From NCBI GenBank assembly GCA_902478645.1, contig CABSLV010000005.1, positions 20,892-84,891 of the forward strand: DNA of 64,000 bases. Direction: 5' to 3'. Origin of the DNA: an uncultured Flavobacteriales bacterium (GTDB lineage: Bacteria > Bacteroidota > Bacteroidia > Flavobacteriales > UBA1820). A model generated the notes under the pieces. That model saw only the letters and a list, made by a program, of their open reading frames with translations, ran no database searches and was not told the DNA's origin. A program made the position numbers and the translations under genes. This document shows positions 5,092 to 44,322 of this stretch, one piece after another (position 1 is the stretch's first letter; each line of letters starts with the position of its first letter).

Positions 5092-6438
5092 TCAGTTGAA
5101 CAGGACCATGGCAGGGAAGAGATATTCCTGATACTCCAAACGCGATTTCTCAGCGCCGGTCTTTCCGTCGAATACCACCAGTCTGTTCTGGTTGTCTCCC
5201 CAGCTAACACCCACGAAAGTGGCTACCAAGTCGCCGCTCACGGGATCTACCCGGAAACCACCGCCGTAGAGGTAATCGTTCGCACCCCCCGCGGCAAACG
5301 GCTGGGCGAGCGACGAAGCGTCGCCGATCTGATAACGGTAGATATTCTGTACGGCATAGTTGTCCCCTGCACTGGCAAAGTACAAGACATTTTCCGTGGC
5401 GGAAGCATCGAACATGGCCGGCTTCCACGCCCACTGGTCGGTATAGACTTCAAGACCTTCGGGAAGGTCGGTCTTGGTTACGGCCAGGGTCTTGGGATTG
5501 ATGCAGTAGAGCGAAGGGCCGTCCGAAGCCCAGATGTTGCCGTCCTTGGACTGTACGAAACCGATGTGCGCCGGGCAGAGCACCTCGCTGCGGACCAGCG
5601 AACGATCGGCTTTGGAGTACACGTATACGCCGTCCTTGACATTGATGACAAAGATGTAGTCACCCGCCGTGATCGCACCGCCGCACTGGGCCGACATGCC
5701 GGTAGAGCCTACGCCCCGCGAGCCTTCCAGGTAAGATACCGACTTGAACGTGTTGAGATCGACCACGTAAGCCCCGTTGGAGGTCGTGTACACCCCGTAG
5801 TTTTCGTCGATACCGGCAAAGGAACGTCCATCGGCATCCGAACCGGCTACTGCAGCGGAATACTCACCGCCATCGACAAAATCGGTGGCCGAGGCCTTGA
5901 CCAGAGTGCGGCCCTGCTTGGAGACGAAGTAATAGTTTCCGTTCCATTTCGTACCGAATTCGGTCGTATTGCCCAGTTCTTTTCCCGGGTTGGCCGTCTG
6001 ATACACGTGCGGAGTACGGGTGGATGCGTCGGCAAAATAATCGACCGAACCCATCGTCCGACCGAACGAGCCTTCGTTGATGACGAAAAATCCGCCCTTG
6101 TACAGCACTACACTTACGGTAAATTCACGCGAATCGGTACCGGAAACATTCGTGGCGGTAAATTTCAGGATGTACTCCCCGGTCTGCTTGGGAGCAAAGG
6201 TGTACGCCAACTCGGTGGATACTTCCTCCCCGTCGAGCGTCCACTGGTATTCGGTCTGCTCGGTAGGGGTTACCGATGCGGTGAAGGTGATGCTTTCCCC
6301 GACAGCCATCGAAAGGTTGTCTTCGGCATTTTCGATTCCGGCAATAGCCGGAACATCCGGATCGTCCTCCTTCGAGCAGGACGTAAATCCTACTGCCAGG
6401 GCGGCAGCAAGGATCATGGTGTAAAAAAATCTTTTCAT
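5092..6438 (-). CDS. Surface lipoprotein with PKD/Ig-like domain plus DUF5074/YncE-like beta-propeller
   Basis: MKRFFYTMILAAALAVGFTSC lipobox. Ig-like segment (ITFTASV...YQWTLDGEEV...KFTATN), then GGFFVINEGSFG typical of DUF5074-type propellers. Confidence 0.72.
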   Translation of the reverse strand: MKRFFYTMILAAALAVGFTSCSKEDDPDVPAIAGIENAEDNLSMAVGESITFTASVTPTEQTEYQWTLDGEEVSTELAYTFAPKQTGEYILKFTATNVSGTDSREFTVSVVLYKGGFFVINEGSFGRTMGSVDYFADASTRTPHVYQTANPGKELGNTTEFGTKWNGNYYFVSKQGRTLVKASATDFVDGGEYSAAVAGSDADGRSFAGIDENYGVYTTSNGAYVVDLNTFKSVSYLEGSRGVGSTGMSAQCGGAITAGDYIFVINVKDGVYVYSKADRSLVRSEVLCPAHIGFVQSKDGNIWASDGPSLYCINPKTLAVTKTDLPEGLEVYTDQWAWKPAMFDASATENVLYFASAGDNYAVQNIYRYQIGDASSLAQPFAAGGANDYLYGGGFRVDPVSGDLVATFVGVSWGDNQNRLVVFDGKTGAEKSRLEYQEYLFPAMVLFN

Positions 6439-6538
6439 TCGTTTGTAGATTTTACTATGGATTTTGAGATGCCGCAAATTTACTCATTTTTTGACTTCCT
6501 CCCAGCCGACAAGCCAAGAATAAACGAGACTCCAGCCA

Positions 6539-6801
6539 TCTTTTCATAAGACAGGATGCGCTCCGGCAAAACCATCGGGGAAAAACCTCACCCTCTCCCT
6601 CGCCTTTGCACTCGGCTTTCACTGTCTTTTCATAAGACAGGATGCGCCTCGGCAAAACCATCGGGGAAAAACCTCTCTCTCTCCCTCGCCTTTGCACTCG
6701 GCTTTCACTATCTTTTCATAAGACAGGATGCGCCTCGGCAATCCCTTAAGGAAAAACTTCATTTTCCCCCGAGGCTTTGCACTCAGCATTCGCTATCTTT
6801 G
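6539..6801 (+). repeat. Tandem array of an 86-bp unit (3 copies starting at 6539, 6625 and 6711; third copy diverged)
   Basis: Unit: tcttttcataagacaggatgcgcctcggcaaaaccatcggggaaaaacctc..ctccctcgcctttgcactcggctttcacta. The period of 86 was derived from ORF-track codon positions. Confidence 0.9.
6794..6801 (+). promoter_or_regulatory. Bacteroidota -7 promoter box TATCTTTG upstream of rnpA
   Basis: Perfect TAnnTTTG 24 nt upstream of the ATG at 6825. It forms the end of the repeat array. Confidence 0.6.
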
Positions 6802-6824
6802 CCCTAACAAAAAACACTGACCCG

Positions 6825-7211
6825 ATGCGCGCCACTTTGGGCAAAAACCAACGGCTGAAAAGTTCCAAACAGATCCGCGAAATCTTCTCCAGACGAAAGA
6901 GCGTGGCCGCGCCACCACTGCGCATTCTCTGGAACGAGATACCGGGCGAAGGGAATCCCTTAGCCGCTTTTTTCGTACCCAAGAAATACTACCGGCACGC
7001 GGTAGAGCGCAACCGGATCAAACGCCTGATGCGTGAAGTTTACCGCACCACACGCTACCAATACATCGGCGGATACTCCCATCGGTTCGCATTCATCTTT
7101 CTGTGGACCGGGCATGATGTACCCGAACTGACCACCGTAAAAAGCCGGATGGACAAAGCCTTTGCCCGTTGGCGGGAGGAAATAGACCGAAGAAACGAAG
7201 TATGCAAATAG
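6825..7211 (+). CDS. rnpA: Ribonuclease P protein component
   Basis: KNQRLKSSKQIREIFS...HAVERNRIKRLMREVYR signature. Internal Met of ORF 6777-7211. Confidence 0.85.
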   Translation: MRATLGKNQRLKSSKQIREIFSRRKSVAAPPLRILWNEIPGEGNPLAAFFVPKKYYRHAVERNRIKRLMREVYRTTRYQYIGGYSHRFAFIFLWTGHDVPELTTVKSRMDKAFARWREEIDRRNEVCK

Positions 7212-7675
7212 ACATCTACACCGACGGCTCCTCGCGGGGCAACCCCGGTCCCGGCGGCTACGGCATCGTGATGCGGGTGCACGACACGAACTACGAAAAG
7301 TCCTTCCAACAGGGATTCCGCCTGACGACCAACAACCGGATGGAACTCCTGGCGGTGATCGTCGCGCTGGAAAAACTGCAAACCTCCGGTCATCAGGTAC
7401 ACATCTATTCGGACTCCCGCTACGTGGTGGACGCCGTGAGCAAAGGTTGGCTCGACGGGTGGGTCAAAAAAAACTTCGCCGGAAAAAAGAACCCCGACCT
7501 GTGGATGCGTTACCTGCGCGCCGCCCGAGGACAACATATCGTCTTCCATTGGATAAAGGGACACAACGAACACCCGGAAAACGAACGCTGCGACGCCATG
7601 GCCGTCGCAGCCGCCACAGCCGATGCCGCGAAACTGGCCCGCGACACCGTATTTGAAAACGAATACAAGCTATAA
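7202..7675 (+). CDS. rnhA: Ribonuclease HI
   Basis: IYTDGSSRGNPGPGGYG, TNNRMEL, DSRYVV, HWIKGHNEHPENERCD. Overlaps the rnpA stop by 10 nt. Confidence 0.92.
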   Translation: MQIDIYTDGSSRGNPGPGGYGIVMRVHDTNYEKSFQQGFRLTTNNRMELLAVIVALEKLQTSGHQVHIYSDSRYVVDAVSKGWLDGWVKKNFAGKKNPDLWMRYLRAARGQHIVFHWIKGHNEHPENERCDAMAVAAATADAAKLARDTVFENEYKL

Positions 7676-7704
7676 CCCCCACCCCCTAAACCGAAAAACC
7701 GACC

Positions 7705-8868
7705 ATGAAAACAAACTCCCGCCGCATCCTCCCGACCGTGGGCGTAGTGCTTCTCGCCCTGATCGTCGTCTATCTCGCCGGCCCGCGGCCCGCGGCCCCC
7801 GTACTTTCCACAGAATTTCCCATCGTACCCGAGTCGCTGGAAGCCATTCAGGACAGCCTTTCCCGCGCCGAAAAAGCTGCGGGCAACGTCAAAAAGGACA
7901 ACGAAGGCCGGATCTTCTGGCAGGGCGACTCGCTGAAACGCACCGAATACGTCCTGTTGTACCTGCACGGATACAGTGCCTCCCGGTTGGAAGGGGAGCC
8001 GGTTACCACCGACTTTGCCGCCCGTTACGGGGTCAACCTATACGCGCCCCGTCTGTGTGCCCACGGTCTGGACACGCCCGAACCGCTGCTGGACATGACG
8101 GCGGACTGCCTGTGGGAAGGCGCCAAGAACGCCTTGGCTGTGGCGGAAAAACTGGGAGAGAAAGTGATCGTGATGAGCACCTCCACCGGCGGCACCCTCG
8201 CCTTGACCCTGGCTGCGACCTACCCGGAAAAAATCCATGCCCTGATCAACATCTCGCCGAACATCCTCCCGGCCAACCGCGGCATCGGACTGATCAACGG
8301 TCCTTGGGGCTTGCAAATAGCCCGGGCGGTGATGGGGGGAAAATACATGCCCGTCGATCCCGACTCGTACCATCCGGAAGCCTGGAGCGAAGGCGCTCGC
8401 CTGGAATCGGCCGTAGAGTTGCAATCGCTGGTCGAAGCCACGATGACCCGCCGGACCTTCCAACGGGTTACCGCCCCGAGCCTCACCCTGGCCTACTACA
8501 AGAACCGGCAGCATCAGGATGGCACGGTTCGCGTGAGCCGTATCCGGGAAATGGTTTCCGAACTCGGCACCCCTCCCCAGGGAAACGTGTACGTGGAACT
8601 TCCCGAGGTAGGAGTACACCCGATGGCCAGCGGTATCGTATCCAAGGACATCCCGGCCGTGGAAGAGGCCATTTTCTCGTTCAGCGAACAGGTCCTCGGA
8701 CTGCGCCCCCTGCCTGCTCCCCGGAGGTCGAAACCCAGTCCTGCAAAGGATAGGAACGAGCCCCCTTGCTGCGCAAACGCATTTTCTCAGCCAAAAAATT
8801 TCCGCTTGCACGGGCACAAGCAGGCATACCCCCCGATGGATTTCTTACGGAAAACTCTTCCTCGTTAA
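7705..8868 (+). CDS. Alpha/beta hydrolase (esterase/lipase-like), membrane-anchored
   Basis: N-terminal TM, LYLHGYSAS, nucleophile-elbow-like MSTSTGG. Confidence 0.72.
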   Translation: MKTNSRRILPTVGVVLLALIVVYLAGPRPAAPVLSTEFPIVPESLEAIQDSLSRAEKAAGNVKKDNEGRIFWQGDSLKRTEYVLLYLHGYSASRLEGEPVTTDFAARYGVNLYAPRLCAHGLDTPEPLLDMTADCLWEGAKNALAVAEKLGEKVIVMSTSTGGTLALTLAATYPEKIHALINISPNILPANRGIGLINGPWGLQIARAVMGGKYMPVDPDSYHPEAWSEGARLESAVELQSLVEATMTRRTFQRVTAPSLTLAYYKNRQHQDGTVRVSRIREMVSELGTPPQGNVYVELPEVGVHPMASGIVSKDIPAVEEAIFSFSEQVLGLRPLPAPRRSKPSPAKDRNEPPCCANAFSQPKNFRLHGHKQAYPPMDFLRKTLPR

Positions 8869-8899
8869 AAAAGACGACAGAAAAGCCACTCCGGAAACC

Positions 8900-9460
8900 C
8901 TACGACATCCCTATCTCGGCAGGCGAGACATACCCGTTGAGCAGCGCATAAAATGTAAGTCCCGATACGGTCTTGATCCCCGTTTTGGCCGAGATGTTTT
9001 TACGATGGGTGAGCACGGTGTTGAAACTGATGGACAACCGCTCGGCAATCTCTTTGTTGATAGCCCCCGAAACGACCAGACGCAAGACCTGTATTTCCCG
9101 GGGTGTAAGATTCTTATTTTCCTCACCCTCTCCTGTGGAATCGTGTCGGCCAAAGAAGCCTTTTATCACCTCGACCATACGGTGCTGATCGGCAGAAGTA
9201 TCGAGCAGGCATTCTCCCTCCTCCCCTTGGCCCGCACCTAAAGACAAGCGGACGAGTTTCCGCGCAACGATGCCCGCAAAGGAACCCATCGCTTCCTCTT
9301 CGACGAAATACATATCGTAGTCCTCGTGCCGCACCCATTCGCCCGAGGTGGCGTACAGGTCGATCTCCATCGGAGGGAAATACGAAACCAACAGGTTTCG
9401 CAATCCCCCGGCCCGCAGCGTGTCGCGGCAACAGATGGCTACCCGACGGATCCTACGCAT
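8900..9460 (-). CDS. LuxR-family HTH transcriptional regulator with degenerate receiver-like N-terminus
   Basis: C-terminal LTPREIQVLRLVVSGAINKEIAERLSISFNTVLTHRKNI. N-terminal VAICCRDTLRAGGL lacks the acidic DD pocket. The start overlaps the upstream stop by 8 nt. Confidence 0.8.
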   Translation of the reverse strand: MRRIRRVAICCRDTLRAGGLRNLLVSYFPPMEIDLYATSGEWVRHEDYDMYFVEEEAMGSFAGIVARKLVRLSLGAGQGEEGECLLDTSADQHRMVEVIKGFFGRHDSTGEGEENKNLTPREIQVLRLVVSGAINKEIAERLSISFNTVLTHRKNISAKTGIKTVSGLTFYALLNGYVSPAEIGMS

Positions 9461-10208
9461 CGTCTCTGCCGGTGTTTTTGCCCCCGCGCTCCATCGCATG
9501 AACCATCGGGATGAGTATCCGGTGGCGGATCCGCTCGTGCAGGCGCATGTCTTTTTCAAAAGCCGAAACGGCAAACAATACGGCGTAACACAGGTTCGGG
9601 TCGTACATCCCCCGCAAATGCCGCACCAATACGCTCTTTATGTCGCGCAACTGCTCCCAGCCGTATTCCTGATCTGCCGCACTCTTTTGCACGGGCGACA
9701 TTGGACGCAAGTCGGCCTGGGGGACGGAACGGCACAGACGGAGCACATAGGGGAAAAACTCGTCCTCATCCCGCTCCATCCGCTCGCAGATACGCGCCTT
9801 TGCCTTGGAAAACGCATCACCCACCAGCGCGAGCGCGGGGTTTTCCCCCCGTCCCGAAGCGACGAAACCCTTCAAATGCCGCTCGATGTTGGGCAACTGA
9901 AACCGGCGGTAATACGCATGGGTCTTGCTCAGGTAATCGACGATCTGTTCGGCGTGAAAAGCGGAGAACTGCTCCTGCGGGAAATACCCTTCGTTGAGAA
10001 AGGTATTGAGCACCATCAGGAAAAAACCGGTGTCGATACCCTGTCGGGCACATACCTGTTCCACGGAACTCTCGCCCAAGCCGAGCGGGATACCGAAACG
10101 ATCGAGTACCGGCATGAGAAAGGGATGGTCTTCGAGTATCCCGGCCAAAGACATATCGCGGTATATCAGCAGCATGTTTTTATGAAATTTATCGTTTACC
10201 CTTACCAT
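9453..10208 (-). CDS. Hemerythrin-like / ScdA(RIC)-like di-iron protein (putative)
   Basis: 252 aa from the internal Met MVRVNDKF. ScdA_N-like PFLMPVLDRFGIPLGLGE..VEQVC, then His/Glu-rich helices (THAYYRR, DEDEFFPYV, MRLHERIRHRILIP). Confidence 0.55.
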   Translation of the reverse strand: MVRVNDKFHKNMLLIYRDMSLAGILEDHPFLMPVLDRFGIPLGLGESSVEQVCARQGIDTGFFLMVLNTFLNEGYFPQEQFSAFHAEQIVDYLSKTHAYYRRFQLPNIERHLKGFVASGRGENPALALVGDAFSKAKARICERMERDEDEFFPYVLRLCRSVPQADLRPMSPVQKSAADQEYGWEQLRDIKSVLVRHLRGMYDPNLCYAVLFAVSAFEKDMRLHERIRHRILIPMVHAMERGGKNTGRDDA

Positions 10209-27308: not shown

Positions 27309-28082
27309 TCAAAAATCGATCTCCAAGGTATCGTAGGCCAGGTGTACCCCTTCGGGAAGCAAGGTTTCCGCCTGGGCGGCAAAACCCATCGCTTCGCTGA
27401 TGTGGGTGAAATACGTCCGTTTGGGTGCCACGCGCCGCACCACTTCCAGCGCTTCGGGCAGGATCATGTGGGTGGGGTGCGGATCGCTGTGGCGCAAACA
27501 GTTGAGCACCAACACGTCGACCCCTTCGAGCAGGCGGTAGGAGGACTCGAACATCTGTTTGACATCGGTCAGGTAAGCCAGGTTTCCGATGCGGTAACCC
27601 GTTACGTCGATCCATCCGTGGTTGGCCGGGATGGGGATCACCCGCACGTCCCGTACGTAAAACGGCTCGTCGGTAATGATGTGTTCGGCAACGGTCGGGG
27701 CTCCGGGATAACGGTCCGCTCCTTTGGCAAAAACGTATGCAAAGCGCGCCTTGAGCGAATCCATCACTTCCTTCTTGGCATACAGGTCGATGTCGTGGCT
27801 GCGGAAGTAACAGATGGGGCGCACGTCGTCCAAACCGGCCGTATGGTCGGAATGCTGGTGGGTGAACAGGATGCCGTCCAGGTCGGACAGGCCGGCGCGC
27901 AGCATTTGGTAGCGGAAGTCCGGTCCGCAATCGAGCAGGATGATGTGTCCGTTGTCGGTGACGATGGCGGCCGAGGTGCGCAGGCGGTTGTCGCGCGGAT
28001 CGGTCGATCGTGACACGGGGCTCTTGCTGCCGATCATCGGTACGCCCTGCGAGGTTCCTGTTCCCAAAAATATCAACTTCAT
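27309..28082 (-). CDS. MBL-fold metallo-hydrolase
   Basis: MKLIFLGTGTSQGVP..., HxHxDH motif (THQHSDHTAG). Confidence 0.85.
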   Translation of the reverse strand: MKLIFLGTGTSQGVPMIGSKSPVSRSTDPRDNRLRTSAAIVTDNGHIILLDCGPDFRYQMLRAGLSDLDGILFTHQHSDHTAGLDDVRPICYFRSHDIDLYAKKEVMDSLKARFAYVFAKGADRYPGAPTVAEHIITDEPFYVRDVRVIPIPANHGWIDVTGYRIGNLAYLTDVKQMFESSYRLLEGVDVLVLNCLRHSDPHPTHMILPEALEVVRRVAPKRTYFTHISEAMGFAAQAETLLPEGVHLAYDTLEIDF

Positions 28083-33242: not shown

Positions 33243-34406
33243 ATGTTTGAAACCTTCTCGACTTTCGCTCTGCAACAATACTGGTGGGTGATTATCTCCC
33301 TGTTGGCCGGACTGCTGGTCGCCCTGATGTTCGTCCAAGGGGGACAAACCCTGATCTACCAGGCCGGGAAGACCGACCTGGAACGCACGATGATCGTCAA
33401 TGCCCTGGGGCACAAATGGGAACTGACCTTCACCACCCTGGTGGTATTCGGCGGAGCGTTCTTCGCCGCCTTTCCCCTGTTTTACGCCACCAGTTTCGGC
33501 GGGGCGTATTGGGTATGGATGGTCATCCTGCTGTTTTTCGTCCTCCAGGCCGTCTCGTACGAATTCCGCACCAAGGCCGGCAACCTGCTGGGACAGCGCA
33601 CCTACCAGAATTTTCTGCTGATCAACGGCATCGGAGCCCCGCTCTTTCTGGGAGTGGCAGTCGCTTCCTTCTTTACCGGGAGTTCCTTCGTGCTGCTGTC
33701 CGACCCGGCAAGCGGCGTGCTCACCCCCCGCTGGACCGGAGGGTTCGGGGGGCTGGAACTGGCCTTTGACCTGAGCAGTTACACCACCTACATCAACCTT
33801 TCGCTCGGCATAGCCCTGGTATTCCTCACCCGGGTACTGGGAGCAATGTACCTGAAAAGCAGCATCGACTCCCCGGAGATCGCCGAACGTTCCGAGAAAA
33901 CCATCCGTCAGGAAGCGCCTTTCTTCCTGCTGTTCTTCGTCTTTTTCCTGCTGAACCTCCTGCTGCGCGAGGGATACGCCTACGACTCGCAGGGCCTGAT
34001 CTATACCGAGAGCTTCAAGTACCTGCACAACCTGTTGCAGATGCCCCTCGTCCTGGTCCTGTTGCTGCTGGGCACCGGACTCACCGTGGCCGGCATCGTT
34101 CTGGGGGGCTACACCGCCCGCCGGAGAGGTTTCTACTACTCGGCCCCCGGCGTAGTACTGGTAGTACTCGCCCTGCTACTCACCGCCGGGCTGAACGATA
34201 CCGTGTACTACCCCTCCACCGGTGCCAACATCCAGAACGGCCTGACCATCCGCAACAGTTCCTCCGGCCGCTACACCCTCACGGTCATGAGTTACGTCTC
34301 GTTGTTCATCCCGTTCGTAGTGGCGTACATCGCCTACGTATGGCATTCGATGGGGCGGCACAAGATCGACAAACAGGAGATAAAAGACGACCCGGACACT
34401 TATTGA
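33243..34406 (+). CDS. cydB: Cytochrome bd ubiquinol oxidase subunit II
   Basis: 387-aa polytopic protein directly downstream of cydA. LQQYWWVIISLL start is typical of CydB. Confidence 0.93.
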   Translation: MFETFSTFALQQYWWVIISLLAGLLVALMFVQGGQTLIYQAGKTDLERTMIVNALGHKWELTFTTLVVFGGAFFAAFPLFYATSFGGAYWVWMVILLFFVLQAVSYEFRTKAGNLLGQRTYQNFLLINGIGAPLFLGVAVASFFTGSSFVLLSDPASGVLTPRWTGGFGGLELAFDLSSYTTYINLSLGIALVFLTRVLGAMYLKSSIDSPEIAERSEKTIRQEAPFFLLFFVFFLLNLLLREGYAYDSQGLIYTESFKYLHNLLQMPLVLVLLLLGTGLTVAGIVLGGYTARRRGFYYSAPGVVLVVLALLLTAGLNDTVYYPSTGANIQNGLTIRNSSSGRYTLTVMSYVSLFIPFVVAYIAYVWHSMGRHKIDKQEIKDDPDTY

Positions 34407-34562
34407 TCTCCCTCCGAGCGTCTGCTCCAAGCGGGGGAAAACCAGCCGTTTTTGCCCCGGGAAGATCGGAAGACAAAAGGATTGCGCACAGGGATCCCTT
34501 CCCTTGTGCGCAACCCGACCTAAACAACCAAACAATCACCAGAAAAAAAAGTTCGTTCTTCC

Positions 34563-36071
34563 TCACGCCAGCCCGGCCGCCCGGAGCGAACCGTTGGAGA
34601 GCAGCGTTCCCAACCTCCGGTCGATACTCTCCAGATAGCGGTTGTAGCGCGTATTGGATTCGATGGCCACCAGAGCGGACAGGCTGTCGGAAAGGGTTTC
34701 CATCGATTTTATCTGATTGGTGCGGATGGCGTTCATCTGCCCGGCCACCAGCGAAGCAGTCTGTTCGCTCACCCCTTTTATCGCGGCGGAAAGCGTCTGC
34801 GAACTCGAATTGTCCACCTCCAGGCCCAGTTTTTCGAGGATGGAGCTCAACTCGGGAGAAAGTTCCTTGATCTTCTCGGCCGTCTGTTCGATCTGCGCTT
34901 CGAGTTCCGGAGTAACCACCTCGTCCAAGTCGATCTCTCCGGCGAGGAAGTCCATCACCTTTTCCCGGAATTTGTTGAATATCGGGTCGATCTGCGCCAG
35001 GATCACCGAATCGGAAAAACCGTTGATGATCGCCTGCCGCATCACGTCCTCGAAATTCTTGGCAAAATCCCACGTAGCTTCCTCGCCCTTGCGGAAGGCC
35101 TCGACCCAACTGTCGGCCAATGATTGGGCCGAAGAACCGATCAACTCCTCGGCCAAGCTTTTCTGCTGCTCCACCCAGTCTTTTTCCTGCTGGGCCAGGG
35201 CGAGCAAACGCTCGTAAAACGACTGGTACTCATCGTACGACTCGTCACTCGAAGGCATCAACGGCGAACCACCCATCGTCTCGAGCCAGTCCAAGTCGTC
35301 CCGATGGTTTTTCAACTCCAGCAAAGCATTGTAGTAATTCGATGCACCCCGCTTGTAGCGCGCGCTGTACCGCCCGTTCATCTTGCCGTACAATTCCTGC
35401 ATCCGATCGTCGATCTCGGAGACGACCTCCTGCCGGTTGCCCGAAGCCTGCTGAAGGCCGGACTCGATCTGCTTGTACTTCTCGCGGGTGATCGCCTGCT
35501 CGTCGGCCAGGCGGCGGGAAGTAGCCAAAGACAATTCCACCTCCGCGTTCAACTGAGCATTGAGCGCCTGCTGCATCTCCCGCTGGTATTTCTTTTCCTC
35601 CTCCCTCCGCCGGCGGAAAATACCCACGATCCCAGATATCAGCGAAGCTCCGGCACCCAAACCGCCCAGGACCGCCCCGAAGATGCTGCCGCCGCTACCC
35701 GATCCACCACTCATGCCCCCTGAAGCGCCCGCTGCCGAACCCGCCACGCCCCCGGCAGCGGAAGCCGCCGCTGCGCCGGAAGAAGTCGTCTTGACCTCCT
35801 TGGCCTGGCGGATGGCCTCGGCGAGTTTTGAAATATTCTGCACCAACATCTGTCCACTGGAGGACACCTGAACGATCAAATCCCCCGCCTGGCGGAGCGA
35901 ACCGTTGAACCCTGACAATCCTCGACCCAACTCGCCCAGCCCCGTGAGACTTTCCAAAATCTGATTGCGCAAATCGGCCGTCGTCCGCTGAATCTCCACA
36001 CTCGATACGATGTTCGATCCTGCCGTGCTACTACCATTACTCTTTTTACTGCTTGCCATTTTCTCTTTCAT
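34563..36071 (-). CDS. Hypothetical coiled-coil membrane protein with tape-measure-like features
   Basis: 502 aa with no signal peptide. Gly/Ala/Ser tract, then TM IFGAVLGGLGAGASLISGIVGIF followed by RRRREEEKK, and a long helical C-terminal part (SLADSWVEAFRKGEEATWDFAKNFEDVMRQAIINGF). Confidence 0.8.
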   Translation of the reverse strand: MKEKMASSKKSNGSSTAGSNIVSSVEIQRTTADLRNQILESLTGLGELGRGLSGFNGSLRQAGDLIVQVSSSGQMLVQNISKLAEAIRQAKEVKTTSSGAAAASAAGGVAGSAAGASGGMSGGSGSGGSIFGAVLGGLGAGASLISGIVGIFRRRREEEKKYQREMQQALNAQLNAEVELSLATSRRLADEQAITREKYKQIESGLQQASGNRQEVVSEIDDRMQELYGKMNGRYSARYKRGASNYYNALLELKNHRDDLDWLETMGGSPLMPSSDESYDEYQSFYERLLALAQQEKDWVEQQKSLAEELIGSSAQSLADSWVEAFRKGEEATWDFAKNFEDVMRQAIINGFSDSVILAQIDPIFNKFREKVMDFLAGEIDLDEVVTPELEAQIEQTAEKIKELSPELSSILEKLGLEVDNSSSQTLSAAIKGVSEQTASLVAGQMNAIRTNQIKSMETLSDSLSALVAIESNTRYNRYLESIDRRLGTLLSNGSLRAAGLA

Positions 36072-36178
36072 TTATATCCATGCTGCACTGACCTTGCGGA
36101 CGCTCGTTCCACGCAATCTTGCCATACCTTCCCCGGTATTTCCGAAGACCAACCCCGGGAATCGTCCGCTTGTTTTAA

Positions 36179-36186
36179 CAAATATA
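36179..36186 (-). promoter_or_regulatory. -7 promoter box TATATTTG (minus strand) upstream of the tape-measure-like gene
   Basis: caaatata on +. 108 nt upstream of the ATG at 36071. Confidence 0.5.
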
Positions 36187-36311
36187 ATCAAAAAAGAAAT
36201 AAAACACAAGTACCCCTCCGCATTTTCCCGCTCGCCCCGCCGCGGATTAACGTTCGATCCCACCCCTTTTGCCTAATTTAGTCGCACGAATTGCCGCTGG
36301 CACTCCGCTCG

Positions 36312-37598
36312 ATGGGTAACACATACCGCATATTGTTCCTCCTGCCGTTTCTTTGGTTCGCTGCGCATCCCGCCGCGGGACAATCGGCCATGCGCACCCC
36401 GAGCGATACCAACGCTCTTGTCCCCGTCGAACGGGCAAGCTCGCCGGACTTTCCCCCGCTGGGCTCCGAAGTGGAGGATCAGGATTTGTCTCTCGCTCCG
36501 CCCGAAGCGGTGGATACGGCCTCCCCGAGCGGTTTTTCCTCGTTCGTCCAGACGGTGAGCAGTCTCTTTCAAGTAGATACGACCAAACGGCGGCGGTTTT
36601 CCCTGCTGGCACTCCCCGAGTTTTCCTACGGTGACGAAAATGGTCTGGGGCTTGGATTTACCGCCCGCCTGTACATCAACGACTTCCGCCCCCATCCGCA
36701 GGGCAAGGCCCGGCGGCAGTCGTACGTGGATTTCTCCTCACATTTCACCTTCAAAGGCAATCTGTCGCTCTCGCTCCGCCCGACGGTGTACCTGCTCGAC
36801 GAACGCCTGCTGCTGCGGGGGTACTTCGGACTGGGACACTACCCTTCGACCTTTCAGGCCATCGGCCCGGACAGTCCGGAAGACCAAAAGGAGGACTACG
36901 ACGAACGCTCCACCCGCCTTCGCTTGGCGACGTACTGGCGGTGGTTTGAAAACATGTACATCGGCCTGGGGTATTACTACTACGATTATCAGGTGAAAGA
37001 CATACTCGAAGGCGGGATGCTGGATCAGGGCACGATCCCCGGCTGCGACGGAGCCAGGATTTCAGGCCTTTCCCTGCACTACATCTACGACAGCCGCGAC
37101 GATCCGTTCGTTCCCCTGAAAGGTTTTTACGCACAACTGGACGGCTACTTCAACGCACATCTGCTGGGCAGCACGCAGGATTACACCAAATACCTGATCG
37201 ATCTGCGCGGATACATCCCGGTAGGAAAAGACCAATTGATCGCCCTGAATTTCTACTCCCAGATCGCCACCGGAGAAGTCCCTTTTCAGGACATGGCCTC
37301 CCTGTCCAACGGCATCCACTCACGAGGATACGCCAGCGGCCGTTATATCGACAAAAACCTCATGTCCCTCCAGGCGGAATACCGGTACTATTTCGGACGG
37401 TTCGGCATTTCGGCATTCGCAGGGACGGCCAATGTGGGTGATACGCCGCTGAAAGCACTGAAAATGGACAAATTCACCTTCGGTGGCGGGCTTCGTGTGA
37501 AACCTTTCCGGGGACAACGGATGTACTTCCGGGGCGACGTGGGATTCAACACGCACGGAGACGTCCAGTTCTACCTGGGTATCGACGAACTGTTCTGA
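36312..37598 (+). CDS. Omp85/BamA-TamA family outer-membrane beta-barrel protein
   Basis: Signal peptide (YRILFLLPFLWFAAHPAAG). Bacterial surface antigen (D15)-type barrel ending ...GDVGFNTHGDVQFYLGIDELF. Start taken at the internal Met. Confidence 0.7.
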   Translation: MGNTYRILFLLPFLWFAAHPAAGQSAMRTPSDTNALVPVERASSPDFPPLGSEVEDQDLSLAPPEAVDTASPSGFSSFVQTVSSLFQVDTTKRRRFSLLALPEFSYGDENGLGLGFTARLYINDFRPHPQGKARRQSYVDFSSHFTFKGNLSLSLRPTVYLLDERLLLRGYFGLGHYPSTFQAIGPDSPEDQKEDYDERSTRLRLATYWRWFENMYIGLGYYYYDYQVKDILEGGMLDQGTIPGCDGARISGLSLHYIYDSRDDPFVPLKGFYAQLDGYFNAHLLGSTQDYTKYLIDLRGYIPVGKDQLIALNFYSQIATGEVPFQDMASLSNGIHSRGYASGRYIDKNLMSLQAEYRYYFGRFGISAFAGTANVGDTPLKALKMDKFTFGGGLRVKPFRGQRMYFRGDVGFNTHGDVQFYLGIDELF

Positions 37599-41953: not shown

Positions 41954-42007
41954 TAAATCTTTTTCAATGCCACCAGCCTCCGGTGACTTTCAGACAAAAG
42001 AAAACAA

Positions 42008-42048
42008 TAAAAAAAGCCTTTGCAAGCGTTTCCGTTTTTGCAAAGGCT
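42008..42048 (-). terminator. Intrinsic terminator immediately downstream of tRNA-Gln
   Basis: 11-bp stem agcctttgcaa/ttgcaaaggct with a 12-nt loop, followed by T7 on the minus strand. Confidence 0.7.
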
Positions 42049-42050
42049 TG

Positions 42051-42121
42051 TAGCCCTACCTGGATTCGAACCAAGACAAGCAGATCCAGAATCTGATGTG
42101 CTACCATTACACCATAGGGCT
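42051..42121 (-). tRNA. tRNA-Gln (anticodon CTG)
   Basis: Hand-folded 71-nt cloverleaf: acceptor AGCCCTA/TAGGGCT, T-arm CTTGG-TTCGAAT-CCAGG, anticodon loop TTCTGGA. No encoded CCA. Confidence 0.85.
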
Positions 42122-42148
42122 GAATCACGGTGCAAATTTAGTCATTTT

Positions 42149-42526
42149 TCAGACAGCCGCAACAACTTTTTTATTTTTTTCAGAAATTGTGCCTTGCTCC
42201 TGAGCCGCCTTTCCCCCACGACGGAAATAAATACGGTCTTCCAACCATTCCTGAACTGCGATGGCCGTGGGCTTGGGGAGTTTTTCATAAAAGCGGGAAA
42301 CTTCTATCTGCTCCTTGTTCTCAAATACTTCCTCCAGATTTTCAGCGTTGGCGGCAAATTCATCCAATTTGTCATTCAACTCCTTTTTCAGATCGACACC
42401 GATTTGCGTAGCACGGGCCGCTATGATCATGATCGCCTCATAAACATTTCCCGTCTTGGCATCAATCTGACGAATATCCCGCGTAATGGTCGTCAGCGGC
42501 GCGTTCGATTTCTTCAAATCCATCAT
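42149..42526 (-). CDS. rpoZ: DNA-directed RNA polymerase subunit omega
   Basis: GNVYEAIMIIAARATQIG core motif. Lies downstream of bamD, as is common in Bacteroidota. Confidence 0.8.
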   Translation of the reverse strand: MMDLKKSNAPLTTITRDIRQIDAKTGNVYEAIMIIAARATQIGVDLKKELNDKLDEFAANAENLEEVFENKEQIEVSRFYEKLPKPTAIAVQEWLEDRIYFRRGGKAAQEQGTISEKNKKVVAAV

Positions 42527-42529
42527 CTC

Positions 42530-43468
42530 TTATTCCTTGTTTTGTTTTTTTTGTTCTTTTGCCTGCGCTTTCAAAGCGGCCTTTTCCGCCTTCTCCACCT
42601 GACGGTCGTACTTCTTCATTTTCTTTTCATCCAAACCATCTTTCTCCCCCAGGTCCTTGATCACCTGATCGAGAATGGCGGACTTGTTTTCCATGGCCTT
42701 GACGGCCTTTTCGATCTCGGCATAATGAACCGACTCAGGGAACTGGCGCAGGAACAAACGTCCATAAGTCATGGCATCCGTATAACGCTCGGCCTGTTTG
42801 TCGGGAATACTCTTGTTGGCATAGATCGCAGCCGCCTTGGCACGGTAATACATCAGGTTTTCCCGCTGGGTAGTATAAGGCCGATCATCCAACGCATTGG
42901 TGAAAGCAATTACCGCCGAACTGTAATCCTCCATCCGGTAATAATTGTACGCGATATCGAAAGCCTTTTTATCCAACTTTTCGTTCAACTCCCGCACCAT
43001 ACTGTCCGCCTGGGCCACCTGCGGAGCGGTAGGATAACGTTCGATAAAACGCTGCAAAGCGTTGATCGCCTTGGTCGTATTTTCCTGATCCAGATAACTT
43101 TCAGGAGAAATATTATACGACGACTGGGCAGCCATAAATGCCGCCTGTTCGTTTTTATCGCTCAAAGGGTAGGTCTTGGCAAAATTGCCCATCAAATAAG
43201 CCGAAAGCTCGTACATGTCATCCATGTACCACGAATAGGCCATCATCCAGTCGGCATTTTCGGCCTCTTTCGTGTTTTTAAAATGCTGATAATACGGCTC
43301 GAGTACTTTGACAACCTTCGGATACTTTCCCTGTTCGAACAGTTTTTTGGCGTAGTCCAAATGAGCGACAGGATCCTCGCTGCGGAGTATCTTGGAATAC
43401 TCGCCGCAACTTGCCAACGATACCGTCAATGCGCAGAGCAACCCTATTTTGATGCGTGATAGTAACAT
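42530..43468 (-). CDS. bamD: Outer membrane protein assembly factor BamD (TPR lipoprotein)
   Basis: Lipobox LASC. TPR-like repeats. YAKKLFEQGKYPKVVKVLE start is typical of BamD. Confidence 0.85.
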   Translation of the reverse strand: MLLSRIKIGLLCALTVSLASCGEYSKILRSEDPVAHLDYAKKLFEQGKYPKVVKVLEPYYQHFKNTKEAENADWMMAYSWYMDDMYELSAYLMGNFAKTYPLSDKNEQAAFMAAQSSYNISPESYLDQENTTKAINALQRFIERYPTAPQVAQADSMVRELNEKLDKKAFDIAYNYYRMEDYSSAVIAFTNALDDRPYTTQRENLMYYRAKAAAIYANKSIPDKQAERYTDAMTYGRLFLRQFPESVHYAEIEKAVKAMENKSAILDQVIKDLGEKDGLDEKKMKKYDRQVEKAEKAALKAQAKEQKKQNKE

Positions 43469-43473
43469 AGGTG

Positions 43474-43481
43474 CAAATGTA
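43474..43481 (-). promoter_or_regulatory. Possible -7 box TACATTTG (minus strand) abutting the bamD start
   Basis: caaatgta on +. Only 5 nt separate it from the ATG at 43468, so it would imply a very short or absent leader. Confidence 0.3.
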
Positions 43482-43714
43482 TGAATTTTATCCGTTCACG
43501 TGAAAAAAAAGTCGAAGACTCGGGCAAAGATACAGGATAATATGACGCGCCGCGCAACCGGTCTCCTTAAATAAATCATAAGATTTTCCCCCAAATGCCT
43601 TTCCAACACCGAGCGAGGCAAATTAAACAATTGAAAAACAATCAATATAGTTTTTATCTATCCCGACAAAGAAAAACAATTATACGCAACGCACCCCCTC
43701 CGGATAAAAAGCCG

Positions 43715-43722
43715 TACCTTTG
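43715..43722 (+). promoter_or_regulatory. -7 promoter box TACCTTTG upstream of rubrerythrin
   Basis: TAnnTTTG 45 nt upstream of the ATG at 43768. Confidence 0.55.
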
Positions 43723-43767
43723 TTACAACAAAAATCTTATAAGAACTATACAAAACATCAAGATCCT

Positions 43768-44322
43768 ATGAAAAAGAAATTCATCTGCACCATCTGCGGT
43801 TACGTTCACGAAGGGGATTCCGCTCCCGAAAAATGCCCTCAGTGCCATGCTCCGGCCAGCAAATTCAAAGAATTGGTAGAAAGCGAAGGCGCCCTTGCTT
43901 TCGTAACCGAGCATGAGATCGGCGTAGCCAAAGGCTGCGACGAGGAAATGATCAAGGACCTCAACGCACACTTCACCGGAGAATGCACCGAAGTGGGCAT
44001 GTACCTGGCCATGAGCCGTCAGGCCGACCGTGAAGGCTACCCCGAGATCGCCGAAGCCTACAAGCGCTACGCTTGGGAAGAAGCCGAACACGCCAGCAAA
44101 TTTGCCGAACTGCTGGGCGATGTGGTATGGGACACCAAGACCAACCTGGAAAAACGCATGCAGGCCGAATGCGGCGCTTGCGAAGACAAGATGCGTATCG
44201 CCAAACGCGCCAAGGAACTGAACCTGGACGCTATCCACGATACGGTTCATGAAATGGCCAAGGACGAGGCTCGTCACGGCAAAGGCTTCGAGGGACTCTA
44301 CAACCGCTATTTCAAGAAATAA
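43768..44322 (+). CDS. Rubrerythrin with N-terminal rubredoxin-like domain (reverse rubrerythrin arrangement)
   Basis: [10 protein letters not shown]...CPQC zinc-ribbon/rubredoxin motif at the N-terminus, then a ferritin-like di-iron domain ([16 protein letters not shown]). Confidence 0.92.

Follow-up and report, generated by a model that had tools for sequence, protein, structure and literature searches.

In a 64-kb stretch of contig CABSLV010000005.1 from an uncultured Flavobacteriales bacterium of the UBA1820 lineage (the whole stretch is called the window below), an open reading frame (ORF) of 502 residues lies on the minus strand between cydB, which is convergent with it, and a divergent gene for an Omp85-family protein without POTRA domains. 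This position, given in a preliminary description made from the sequence alone, is borne out by the ORF list and the Pfam annotation, and public gene calls for the same contig give the identical product of 54 kDa from ATG to stop (Table 1). The orthologues begin MASSKK, so that Met-5 (ATG at 36059) may be the true start, which would give 498 residues, the same as in the orthologues. We conclude, with a probability of roughly 0.9, that the gene is an exapted fragment of a tape-measure protein (TMP) of Bacteroidota siphophages, comprising its C-terminal ~460 residues, that its capture happened once, with loss of the N-terminal two-thirds and of all remaining phage genes, and that vertical descent has since kept it at a single chromosomal site in UBA1820-type gut Flavobacteriales, under purifying selection and with a conserved promoter.

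Table 1. Features of the locus, in window coordinates.
Feature	Position	Strand	Basis
cydB, convergent neighbor	33243-34406	+	ORF list, Pfam
Probable terminator between the stop codon and convergent cydB: GC-rich hairpin (TTGCGCACAAGGG...CCCTGTGCGCAA), then TCCTTTTGTC	34482..34513	-	Sequence; RNAfold stem
Whole coding sequence of the TMP-derived protein	34563..36071	-	ORF list, public gene call, orthologue clusters, dN/dS
Residues 281-502, conserved TMP C-terminal domain	34566..35231	-	PHROG 21917, tblastn, alignment with TMPs, lowest dN/dS
Residues 163-280, long helical middle region	35232..35585	-	Invariant RLxDEQxITREKYKQ motif
Residues 153-162, RRRREEEKKY basic/acidic cluster	35586..35615	-	Conserved in all orthologues
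Residues 130-152, single predicted transmembrane helix with glycine-zipper patterns, IFGAVLGGLGAGASLISGIVGIF	35616..35684	-	Kyte-Doolittle 19-residue maximum 1.88
Residues 97-129, low-complexity Gly/Ala/Ser linker of variable length	35685..35783	-	Alignment indels, low conservation; pLDDT 25-33
Residues 1-96, N-terminal helical hairpin, most variable part	35784..36071	-	DSSP helices 18-53 and 57-96; dN/dS
Bacteroidota-type promoter block, ~31 nt	36179..36210	-	Conserved upstream of orthologous loci
Omp85-family gene without POTRA domains, divergent neighbor	36291-37598	+	Pfam PF01103, E 1.5e-11

The layout first described for the protein, with a helical N terminus, a Gly/Ala/Ser tract, one glycine-zipper transmembrane (TM) segment, an RRRR cluster and ~340 residues of predicted helix, was recovered by Kyte-Doolittle hydropathy, for the TM segment, and by an AlphaFold model assigned with DSSP, for the helices. 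The model contains helices only, a disordered Gly/Ala/Ser tract at residues 97-141 separating the N-terminal hairpin from the long helices that follow, and its confidence, as the predicted local distance difference test (pLDDT), reaches 80-91 at residues ~200-300. No N-terminal hydrophobic signal was found in the 502-residue protein, in agreement with the earlier statement that it lacks a signal peptide, and the TM segment is its sole hydrophobic stretch. Small-xxx-small patterns read directly from this segment overlap one another (G132/G136/A140, A133/G137/G141 and G139/S143/G147), and G139 and F152 are invariant in the orthologue alignment. The basic/acidic cluster follows the TM segment directly; taken with the positive-inside rule, it would place the C-terminal ~350 residues in the cytoplasm. 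The C-terminal domain (C-domain) carries the motifs AFxxGEEA, KGVSEQTASLVAGQMNAIR, NTRYNRYLESID and SLRAAGLA.

Profile searches of Pfam, NCBIfam and PDB sequences with the 502-residue protein gave nothing above cut-off, and no characterized non-phage family in these collections claims it; designed coiled coils, HTH_40 and CT398_CC appeared only as sub-threshold, compositional matches and were set aside. A relationship to LXG/WXG proteins, also raised at the outset, fell away, with no Pfam or NCBIfam match at E ≤ 1 and no secretion genes nearby. The resemblance to phage TMPs, on the other hand, is statistically real. Residues 62-487 align with positions 1232-1690 of 1708 in phrog_9959, annotated as a tail length tape measure protein (E 1.7e-16), and residues 281-501 with positions 1172-1394 of 1395 in phrog_21917 (E 4e-25), both matches falling at the C-terminal ends of very long profiles. 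We take phrog_21917 to be a TMP family as well because a prophage TMP split into two ORFs covers its profile from end to end. Among isolated phages, tblastn matched the annotated TMPs of Porphyromonas, Elizabethkingia, Riemerella and Bacteroides phages; carriers of this TMP family include TCUEAP3 of Elizabethkingia, PJO17 and GDF21 of Riemerella anatipestifer, and phage005 of P. gingivalis. The best match was the TMP of Porphyromonas phage005 (XAW31826, 1357 residues), 31.8% identical over residues 287-501 at its extreme C terminus (E 2e-17), and the Porphyromonas TMP gene occupies the canonical position between those of the major tail protein and the distal tail protein.

A profile built from 18 orthologues and searched against 1.84 billion representative proteins returned 1400 relatives, 570 of them at E ≤ 1e-10, with a gap in E-value from 1e-240 to 1e-37 separating the gene's own family from the others. 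Below this gap nearly all relatives are 1000-1950 residues long and are matched at their very C-terminal end, and ~20 TMP relatives are collinear with the profile over positions ~20-500. The closest is a metagenomic protein of 1093 residues (P0028), 39% identical in the C-domain, which carries the TMP_3 domain (PF20155) and lies on a phage contig with capsid, holin and amidase genes. The protein had been called an orphan, which holds in that it has no phage neighbors but not in that it lacks kin, with about 24 clusters of orthologues and about 1400 TMP relatives.

In total about 460 of the 502 residues are collinear with the C-terminal third of Bacteroidota siphophage TMPs. The last 235 residues of eight chromosomal copies and 21 phage or prophage TMPs align end to end, sharing AFxxGxxA, KGVSEETAxxVAGQMNAIRxNQ, NTxYNRYLxxI and the terminal SLRxxGL, together with NTRYNRYLESID. 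Even the N-terminal hairpin is still collinear with TMP sequence lying ~460-500 residues from the TMP C termini (e.g. P0066, P0069 and P0131), the matches that reach it starting at profile positions ~14-45. At the collinear position in 40 TMPs, ~355-390 residues from the C-terminal end, a K/R/E-rich stretch comes after a Gly-rich hydrophobic segment, as in P0118 (IAAGLGIVGAAVGVVTAIVGIFR-KAREERKK), and by this collinearity the TM segment and its glycine zipper are an inheritance from the TMP family and not host additions. In the chromosomal family the segment has a mean Kyte-Doolittle value of 1.49 ± 0.10, against 1.10 ± 0.46 in the 40 TMPs, with 1.0 polar residues against 3.1, and the six residues after it hold on average 2.64 lysines or arginines against 1.45; the Mann-Whitney P of 4e-4 for this difference in TM segment and basic cluster overstates the independence of the data, since the chromosomal sequences are mutually related. 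A more uniformly hydrophobic segment and a stronger basic cluster than those of TMPs are what would be expected of a resident membrane protein.

The likeness to a functional TMP thus extends to the order of the parts, that is, a helical region, a Gly-rich hydrophobic segment, a charged stretch, a second helical region and the C-domain, and both kinds of protein are all-alpha and are poorly modeled as monomers. The differences are equally clear, in that the TMP relatives have 1093-1772 residues, the window protein carries neither TMP_3 nor any other Pfam domain above cut-off, and its gene lies outside any tail module at a fixed chromosomal position with its own promoter, whereas the genes of true TMP relatives are followed by that of a phrog_6305-type tail protein, as at 523-942 of L036, 10509-11156 of L043 and 10581-11333 of L018, or lie within capsid, tail and lysis modules. 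Lacking the full length, TMP_3 and the tail module, the TMP-derived protein is unfit either to be annotated as a TMP or to serve as a prophage marker, and for annotators this means that "tape measure" matches in Bacteroidota genomes do not always mark prophages.

We determined the distribution of the gene by scanning one genome per species in GTDB r232. Full-length copies of ~500 residues occur in eight species only, all of them "Flavobacteriales" metagenome-assembled genomes (MAGs) from the gut, including UBA1820 (97% identical to the window protein) and Ca. Merdimorpha stercoravium (94%), the others coming from the guts of humans, chickens and ruminants. The name UBA1820 is a placeholder for a family of Flavobacteriales from avian and human guts whose genomes measure ~1.8-2.0 Mb (PMC7214798). 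A further 20 loci in the scan match only residues ~280-502, at 27-36% identity, and here the match forms the end of an ORF of 1100-1770 residues or the ORF is truncated or split; at the loci inspected outside the lineage, phage tail proteins are encoded directly downstream. The TMP relatives themselves are spread over many Bacteroidota, with hosts among the Bacteroidales, Flavobacteriaceae and Marinilabiliaceae. A distance tree built from the C-domain places the chromosomal family in a single monophyletic group (21/21) that is nested within the TMPs. Its median C-domain identity to TMPs is 31.5%, compared with 28.7% between one TMP and another; the domain is no further from TMPs than they are from one another, and hence it still resembles the end of a working TMP.

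On these sequence relationships the simplest history would be a single capture from a phage and not the reverse. The opposite course, in which an ancestral Bacteroidota membrane protein of the host was captured and fused to the ends of phage TMPs, has something to recommend it in that TMPs do pick up host-like modules such as peptidoglycan hydrolase motifs (TMP hydrolases are mentioned in PMC12617516). We nevertheless regard it as very unlikely, given that the stand-alone form occurs in one narrow lineage only, as a monophyletic group within a very broad radiation of 1400 TMP relatives, and that the collinearity over ~460 residues runs beyond the terminal module into generic helical TMP sequence.

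Five candidates for a stand-alone short form outside the lineage were inspected, and none proved to be a chromosomal gene of this kind. The 631-residue protein of L018 is followed by a phage tail protein, in L033 a TMP is split into 937 and 427 residues, and P0160 is a fragment at the end of a contig of 2.2 kb. P0311 and P0320 represent the downstream portions of interrupted TMP genes; the break is an in-frame TGA in P0311 and a frameshift in an A6 run in P0320, and both genes lie within phage tail modules. A second protein without a Pfam match in L042, of 497 residues, is unrelated to the TMP-derived protein.

Several TMP genes of this family in gut phages are in fact called as two ORFs. A single in-frame TGA interrupts the TMP of L044 at 7821 (joined length 1688 residues), that of L045 is frameshifted at AAGAAAAAACC in the A6 run at ~7915-7925, and that of L033 continues in two overlapping frames at 9398-9426; stop-codon recoding, programmed slippage in late genes or sequencing error could be responsible. 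Among the orthologues, the sole disrupted example seen is P0005, 85% identical and on a single 1.9-kb contig, in which a stretch exactly over the TM and RRRR region is scrambled before the sequence returns to frame, reflecting either a compensated double frameshift or an assembly error.

The other orthologous ORFs are intact, with 459-523 residues at 45-95% identity in about 20 clusters. We calculated the ratio of nonsynonymous to synonymous substitution (dN/dS) by the Nei-Gojobori method and measured the neighboring genes on the same genome pairs. The gene is under purifying selection comparable to that on its neighbors, with dN/dS of 0.09-0.18 against 0.01-0.16 for cydB, 0.02-0.15 for the Omp85 gene and 0.05-0.11 for the P-type ATPase gene. 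Constraint is greatest in the C-domain (0-0.05 in close pairs) and least in the N-terminal 135 residues (0.12-0.34). Clusters of the TMP-derived protein and of Omp85 are of similar size (220 and 273 member sequences in one case, 131 and 87 in another), which is what a fixed gene, as opposed to an accessory one, would be expected to show.

The gene also has its own promoter box, TATATTTG, as had been claimed, which lies 108 nt upstream of the ATG. It belongs to a block of the layout cTTG-N-TTTTATTTCTTTTTTGATTATATTTG, with a -33-like cTTG at 36210-36207, a 20-nt T-rich spacer and the -7 box at 36186-36179. Promoters of Bacteroidota take the form -33 TTTG / -7 TAnnTTTG, which the block fits in sequence. 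It was found upstream of all 10 orthologous loci examined, including L015 at only 51% protein identity, and retains 26 invariant columns between flanks that cannot be aligned, though synonymous sites are saturated; within the window the 24-nt core occurs once. A scan with sigma-70 and intrinsic-terminator consensus patterns, which is not designed for Bacteroidota promoters, called nothing. Beyond the stop codon a GC-rich hairpin is the probable terminator (Table 1), and both promoter and terminator are conserved among orthologues.

Two further observations concern the region upstream of the gene. The 20-nt spacer (36187-36206, minus strand) hardly varies even between loci as distant as 51% protein identity, a degree of conservation beyond that needed by a promoter spacer, so that an overlapping regulator-binding site may exist. 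In the window and its closest relatives (L009 and L010) the leader (36072-36170, minus strand) is ~108-126 nt long, is rich in GC and contains a CCCGGGG...CCGGGG hairpin, compared with an AT-rich leader of ~13-55 nt in other sub-lineages; an insertion in the 5' untranslated region was thus apparently gained by the clade of the window. Neither the leader nor the 3' region yielded an Rfam match.

The surroundings of the gene are those of a core locus. In the precomputed Pfam annotation, which covers the window from about position 770 onwards, all annotated genes are housekeeping genes (DUF4492-cydA-cydB, P-type ATPase, Omp85, GNAT, Wzz, Wza, BamD/YfiO, RNA polymerase omega subunit, rubrerythrin, thioredoxin, purine and GMP synthesis, UvrB, Tgt, LptF/G and SmpB), and it contains no integrase, transposase, phage, conjugation or secretion-system gene, upholding the earlier claim for the latter three classes. 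The gene occupies the same locus in all eight species and on all metagenomic contigs inspected, and at orthologous loci with 63%, 56-57% and 51% protein identity it is still divergent from the same Omp85 gene; in none of the loci inspected does an orthologue lie in a prophage region. The adjacency to Omp85 holds in all sub-lineages apart from one small gene that stands between the two in a single sub-lineage, a 265-residue Poly_export (Wza-like) gene at 5132-5929 of L042, which leaves Omp85 as the most constant neighbor. A convergent cydB follows the gene in all loci inspected downstream except the most divergent, L015, where cydBA, a distant pair of 37-42% identity, is found beyond Omp85, on its far side (5781-8389). 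Synteny variation between sub-lineages also includes L013 at ~8800-9960.

These data bear on two further accounts of the gene. A functionless, decaying remnant of a cryptic prophage would explain the phage origin and the truncation of the N terminus relative to every TMP, but the ORFs are intact with dN/dS of 0.09-0.18 across all regions, promoter and terminator are conserved, the window holds no other phage gene, integrase or tRNA-type attachment context, and the position has been kept across family-level divergence. Selection and synteny effectively refute this account, to which we give almost no weight. The preliminary description had offered "domesticated phage remnant" as one reading; the phage homology stands, but the purifying selection, conserved promoter and synteny indicate a domesticated gene and not one in decay. 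The second account, in which the protein is a dispersed part of a phage-tail-like apparatus (a tailocin, a gene transfer agent or a machine resembling extracellular contractile injection systems) encoded elsewhere in the genome, appeals to the fact that TMP-family proteins belong to such machines. It is highly improbable, as the protein lacks the N-terminal two-thirds that include the PF20155 TMP_3 region in its full-length relatives, has no tail genes within 64 kb and carries its own constitutive-type promoter. The alternative wording of that description, a lineage-specific envelope or cytoskeletal protein, also agrees in part, the gene being restricted to UBA1820-type gut Flavobacteriales and its product predicted to be membrane-anchored. 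On sequence grounds the evidence thus supports a combination of the two readings, a phage-derived protein that is lineage-specific and, by prediction, anchored in the membrane.

What the protein might do was approached from what is established for TMPs. The initiator complex at the tail tip is formed by Dit/Tal proteins, or by gpI in lambda. The C-terminal end of the TMP is the one that docks there and that leads the penetration of the membrane; its binding to the tail-tip hub and its indispensability are documented (PMC5099701, PMC12617516). TP901-1 requires the last 60 residues and the first hydrophobic region (PMC5099701, PMC12617516, PMC13190303), and in lambda residues 818-849 bind the hub protein gpI, a C-terminal fragment being freed by cleavage in the Gly-rich region (PMC12617516). 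During infection the TMP forms a conduit to the inner membrane and interacts with its proteins (PMC5099701, PMC12617516, PMC13190303), and the TMP/injection step is a target of defenses encoded by hosts or prophages (PMC13190303 and references therein).

By analogy with these systems, the best explanation that we can offer, and a tentative one held at somewhat less than even odds, is that the protein interferes with phages as a membrane-tethered TMP decoy. It would insert in the inner membrane through the inherited glycine-zipper helix, and the reinforced RRRR cluster would keep the C-terminal part of ~350 residues on the cytoplasmic face. This part, which retains all the consensus motifs of the TMP C-domain and with them presumably the end that docks at the tail tip, would make the truncated, tethered look-alike a dominant-negative decoy against siphophages that use the same TMP family; by binding tail-tip or initiator proteins, or TMP subunits, it might leave tails unbuilt or mis-measured. 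Alternatively, the TM segment and a periplasmic part could interfere with the conduit through which the incoming TMP lets DNA cross the inner membrane. That phages of this kind infect the lineage is plausible from a 6.5-kb phage-like contig (L036) binned with the MAG of L013, which carries a TMP C terminus 36% identical to the window protein (3-512), a phrog_6305 tail protein (523-942) and a Mom-like DNA-modification gene (1792-2526), although binning is no proof of host. The broader proposal, a bacterial form of immunity derived from an endogenous virus in which a constitutively expressed TMP fragment, fixed as a core gene throughout a family of gut bacteria, would act as a dominant-negative mimic and block tail assembly or DNA entry of siphophages with the parental TMP type, is more doubtful, and we consider it rather unlikely.

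Several results weigh against the decoy proposal. AlphaFold2 reached a confident fold neither for the full protein, modeled with 18 orthologues (pLDDT 51, with confidence only at residues ~190-310), nor for the C-domain, for which TMP C termini were among the 48 aligned sequences (pLDDT 48.6); low monomer values are typical of proteins whose folding depends on oligomers or complexes. A Foldseek search of BFVD with the low-confidence model found nothing significant, TMPs heading the list at E ≥ 0.06. The topology is a prediction from the positive-inside rule, and conservation of the TMP motifs could reflect self-assembly of a helical domain instead of binding to phage partners. The gene behaves as a core gene at a fixed locus, unlike most defense genes, with no presence/absence variation among the loci inspected, no defense island around it, the neighbors being respiratory and envelope genes, and no sign of diversifying selection in dN/dS. 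PADLOC gave no convincing family match, its LeoBC hit being inconsistent among orthologues, and in the literature we found no published stand-alone TMP fragment acting in defense, nor any domesticated stand-alone TMP fragment.

The core-like behavior (fixed locus, no defense island, no diversifying signal) argues for the main rival, a co-opted role in the host envelope unrelated to phage and possibly exerted with the divergent Omp85 protein, for example as an all-helical, oligomerizing scaffold anchored in the inner membrane that spans the periplasm or organizes the membrane. Besides the neighbor-level purifying selection and the invariant promoter, such a role would fit the retention of the gene in genomes of only ~1.8-2.0 Mb (PMC7214798), the constancy of Omp85 as a neighbor even in L015, where the adjacency to cydB is lost, and the presence of BamD/YfiO, Wza and Wzz in the same region. 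The close Omp85 orthologues share the lineage restriction, with identity of at least 49% inside the lineage dropping to at most 35% outside. However, the two genes form no operon, being divergent and in one sub-lineage separated by the 265-residue gene, and the distant Omp85 homologues of other Bacteroidota (32-35% identity) have no TMP-like or cyd neighbor, so that an obligatory coupling to Omp85 beyond the lineage is unsupported. The C-domain has moreover stayed at the TMP consensus with no drift toward a new function, and the protein resembles no envelope family. TamB/AsmA-like proteins combine an N-terminal signal anchor with a long beta-rich AsmA/DUF490 domain, whereas the window protein is all-alpha with its TM segment at residues 130-152 and has no Pfam or NCBIfam match. 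We judge an envelope role to be somewhat less likely than the decoy, and nothing in the computed evidence separates the two.

Among known systems, the nearest parallel to the form of the protein is gpHC of lambda, also a separate polypeptide made up of the TMP end distal to a Gly-rich, weakly hydrophobic region (PMC12617516). It differs in being a product of ~14 kDa made by proteolysis of gpH within virion assembly (PMC12617516), whereas the window protein is encoded by a host gene of its own and includes ~130 residues upstream of the Gly-rich segment, and Pfam and PDB-sequence searches detected no sequence relation between the two. For the proposed decoy there are functional analogies, with no sequence similarity, in HK97 gp15, Ltp of TP-J34, lactococcal Sie2009 and SNIPE, membrane-associated products of hosts or prophages for which engagement of the TMP or of the injection site has been demonstrated or suggested (PMC13190303, PMC3952083). 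They comprise small membrane proteins, lipoproteins and a nuclease; a TMP origin applies to none of them, and the majority reside on prophages or mobile islands as opposed to the core chromosomal position seen here. Animal restriction factors offer a further comparison. Fv1, from gag, and Fv4/Refrex-1, from env, mimic or poison a component of the incoming virus, and like the window gene they are fragments of viral structural genes fixed at one host locus and kept by selection; they belong to another domain of life and act on another type of virus, and restriction by the window gene is hypothetical. As to the Eleos system, residues 77-227 match positions 435-583 of the 601-position LeoBC model (PADLOC PDLC03841, E 1.2e-8), but the protein has no dynamin-like GTPase Pfam match and no LeoA neighbor. 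The match is absent or marginal in the orthologues P0010, P0018 and P0023 and is seen in the true TMPs P0046 and P0066; we therefore judged it non-specific, probably reflecting a generic Gly-rich TM segment and helix.

A viral structural fragment has, it appears, been adopted by the host among its housekeeping genes, which places a TMP-family module in a new genetic and probably a new functional setting. TMPs have so far been known as parts of virions, with C-terminal ends that are essential but poorly understood, and since selection has been maintained across family-level divergence in genomes of ~2 Mb, the C-terminal TMP module is capable of working apart from the other tail components. Were the protein to interfere with phages, it would represent a new class of defense by domesticated structural mimics, parallel to restriction of the Fv1/Fv4 type; mimicry of a structural protein by a domesticated fragment is a principle that no anti-phage system is known to use. 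Were its role instead in the envelope, this would be a rare documented case in which ordinary bacterial cell biology has recruited a fragment of one phage tail gene. In either case the protein provides a compact handle of 500 residues for finding the binding partners of KGVSEETA..AGQMNAIR, NTRYNRYLESID and SLRxxGL.

Two observations concern other parts of the window. Beside the P-type ATPase gene, a gene for a metallo-beta-lactamase-fold hydrolase (~27309-28037, minus strand) matches Pfam PF23023 (Anti-Pycsar_Apyc1) as well as Lactamase_B, and its position is conserved in the orthologous loci inspected over that stretch (L001-L007). The GC content falls to 0.46 at 42001-44000, where the BamD/YfiO and RNA polymerase omega genes lie, compared with ~0.57 elsewhere.

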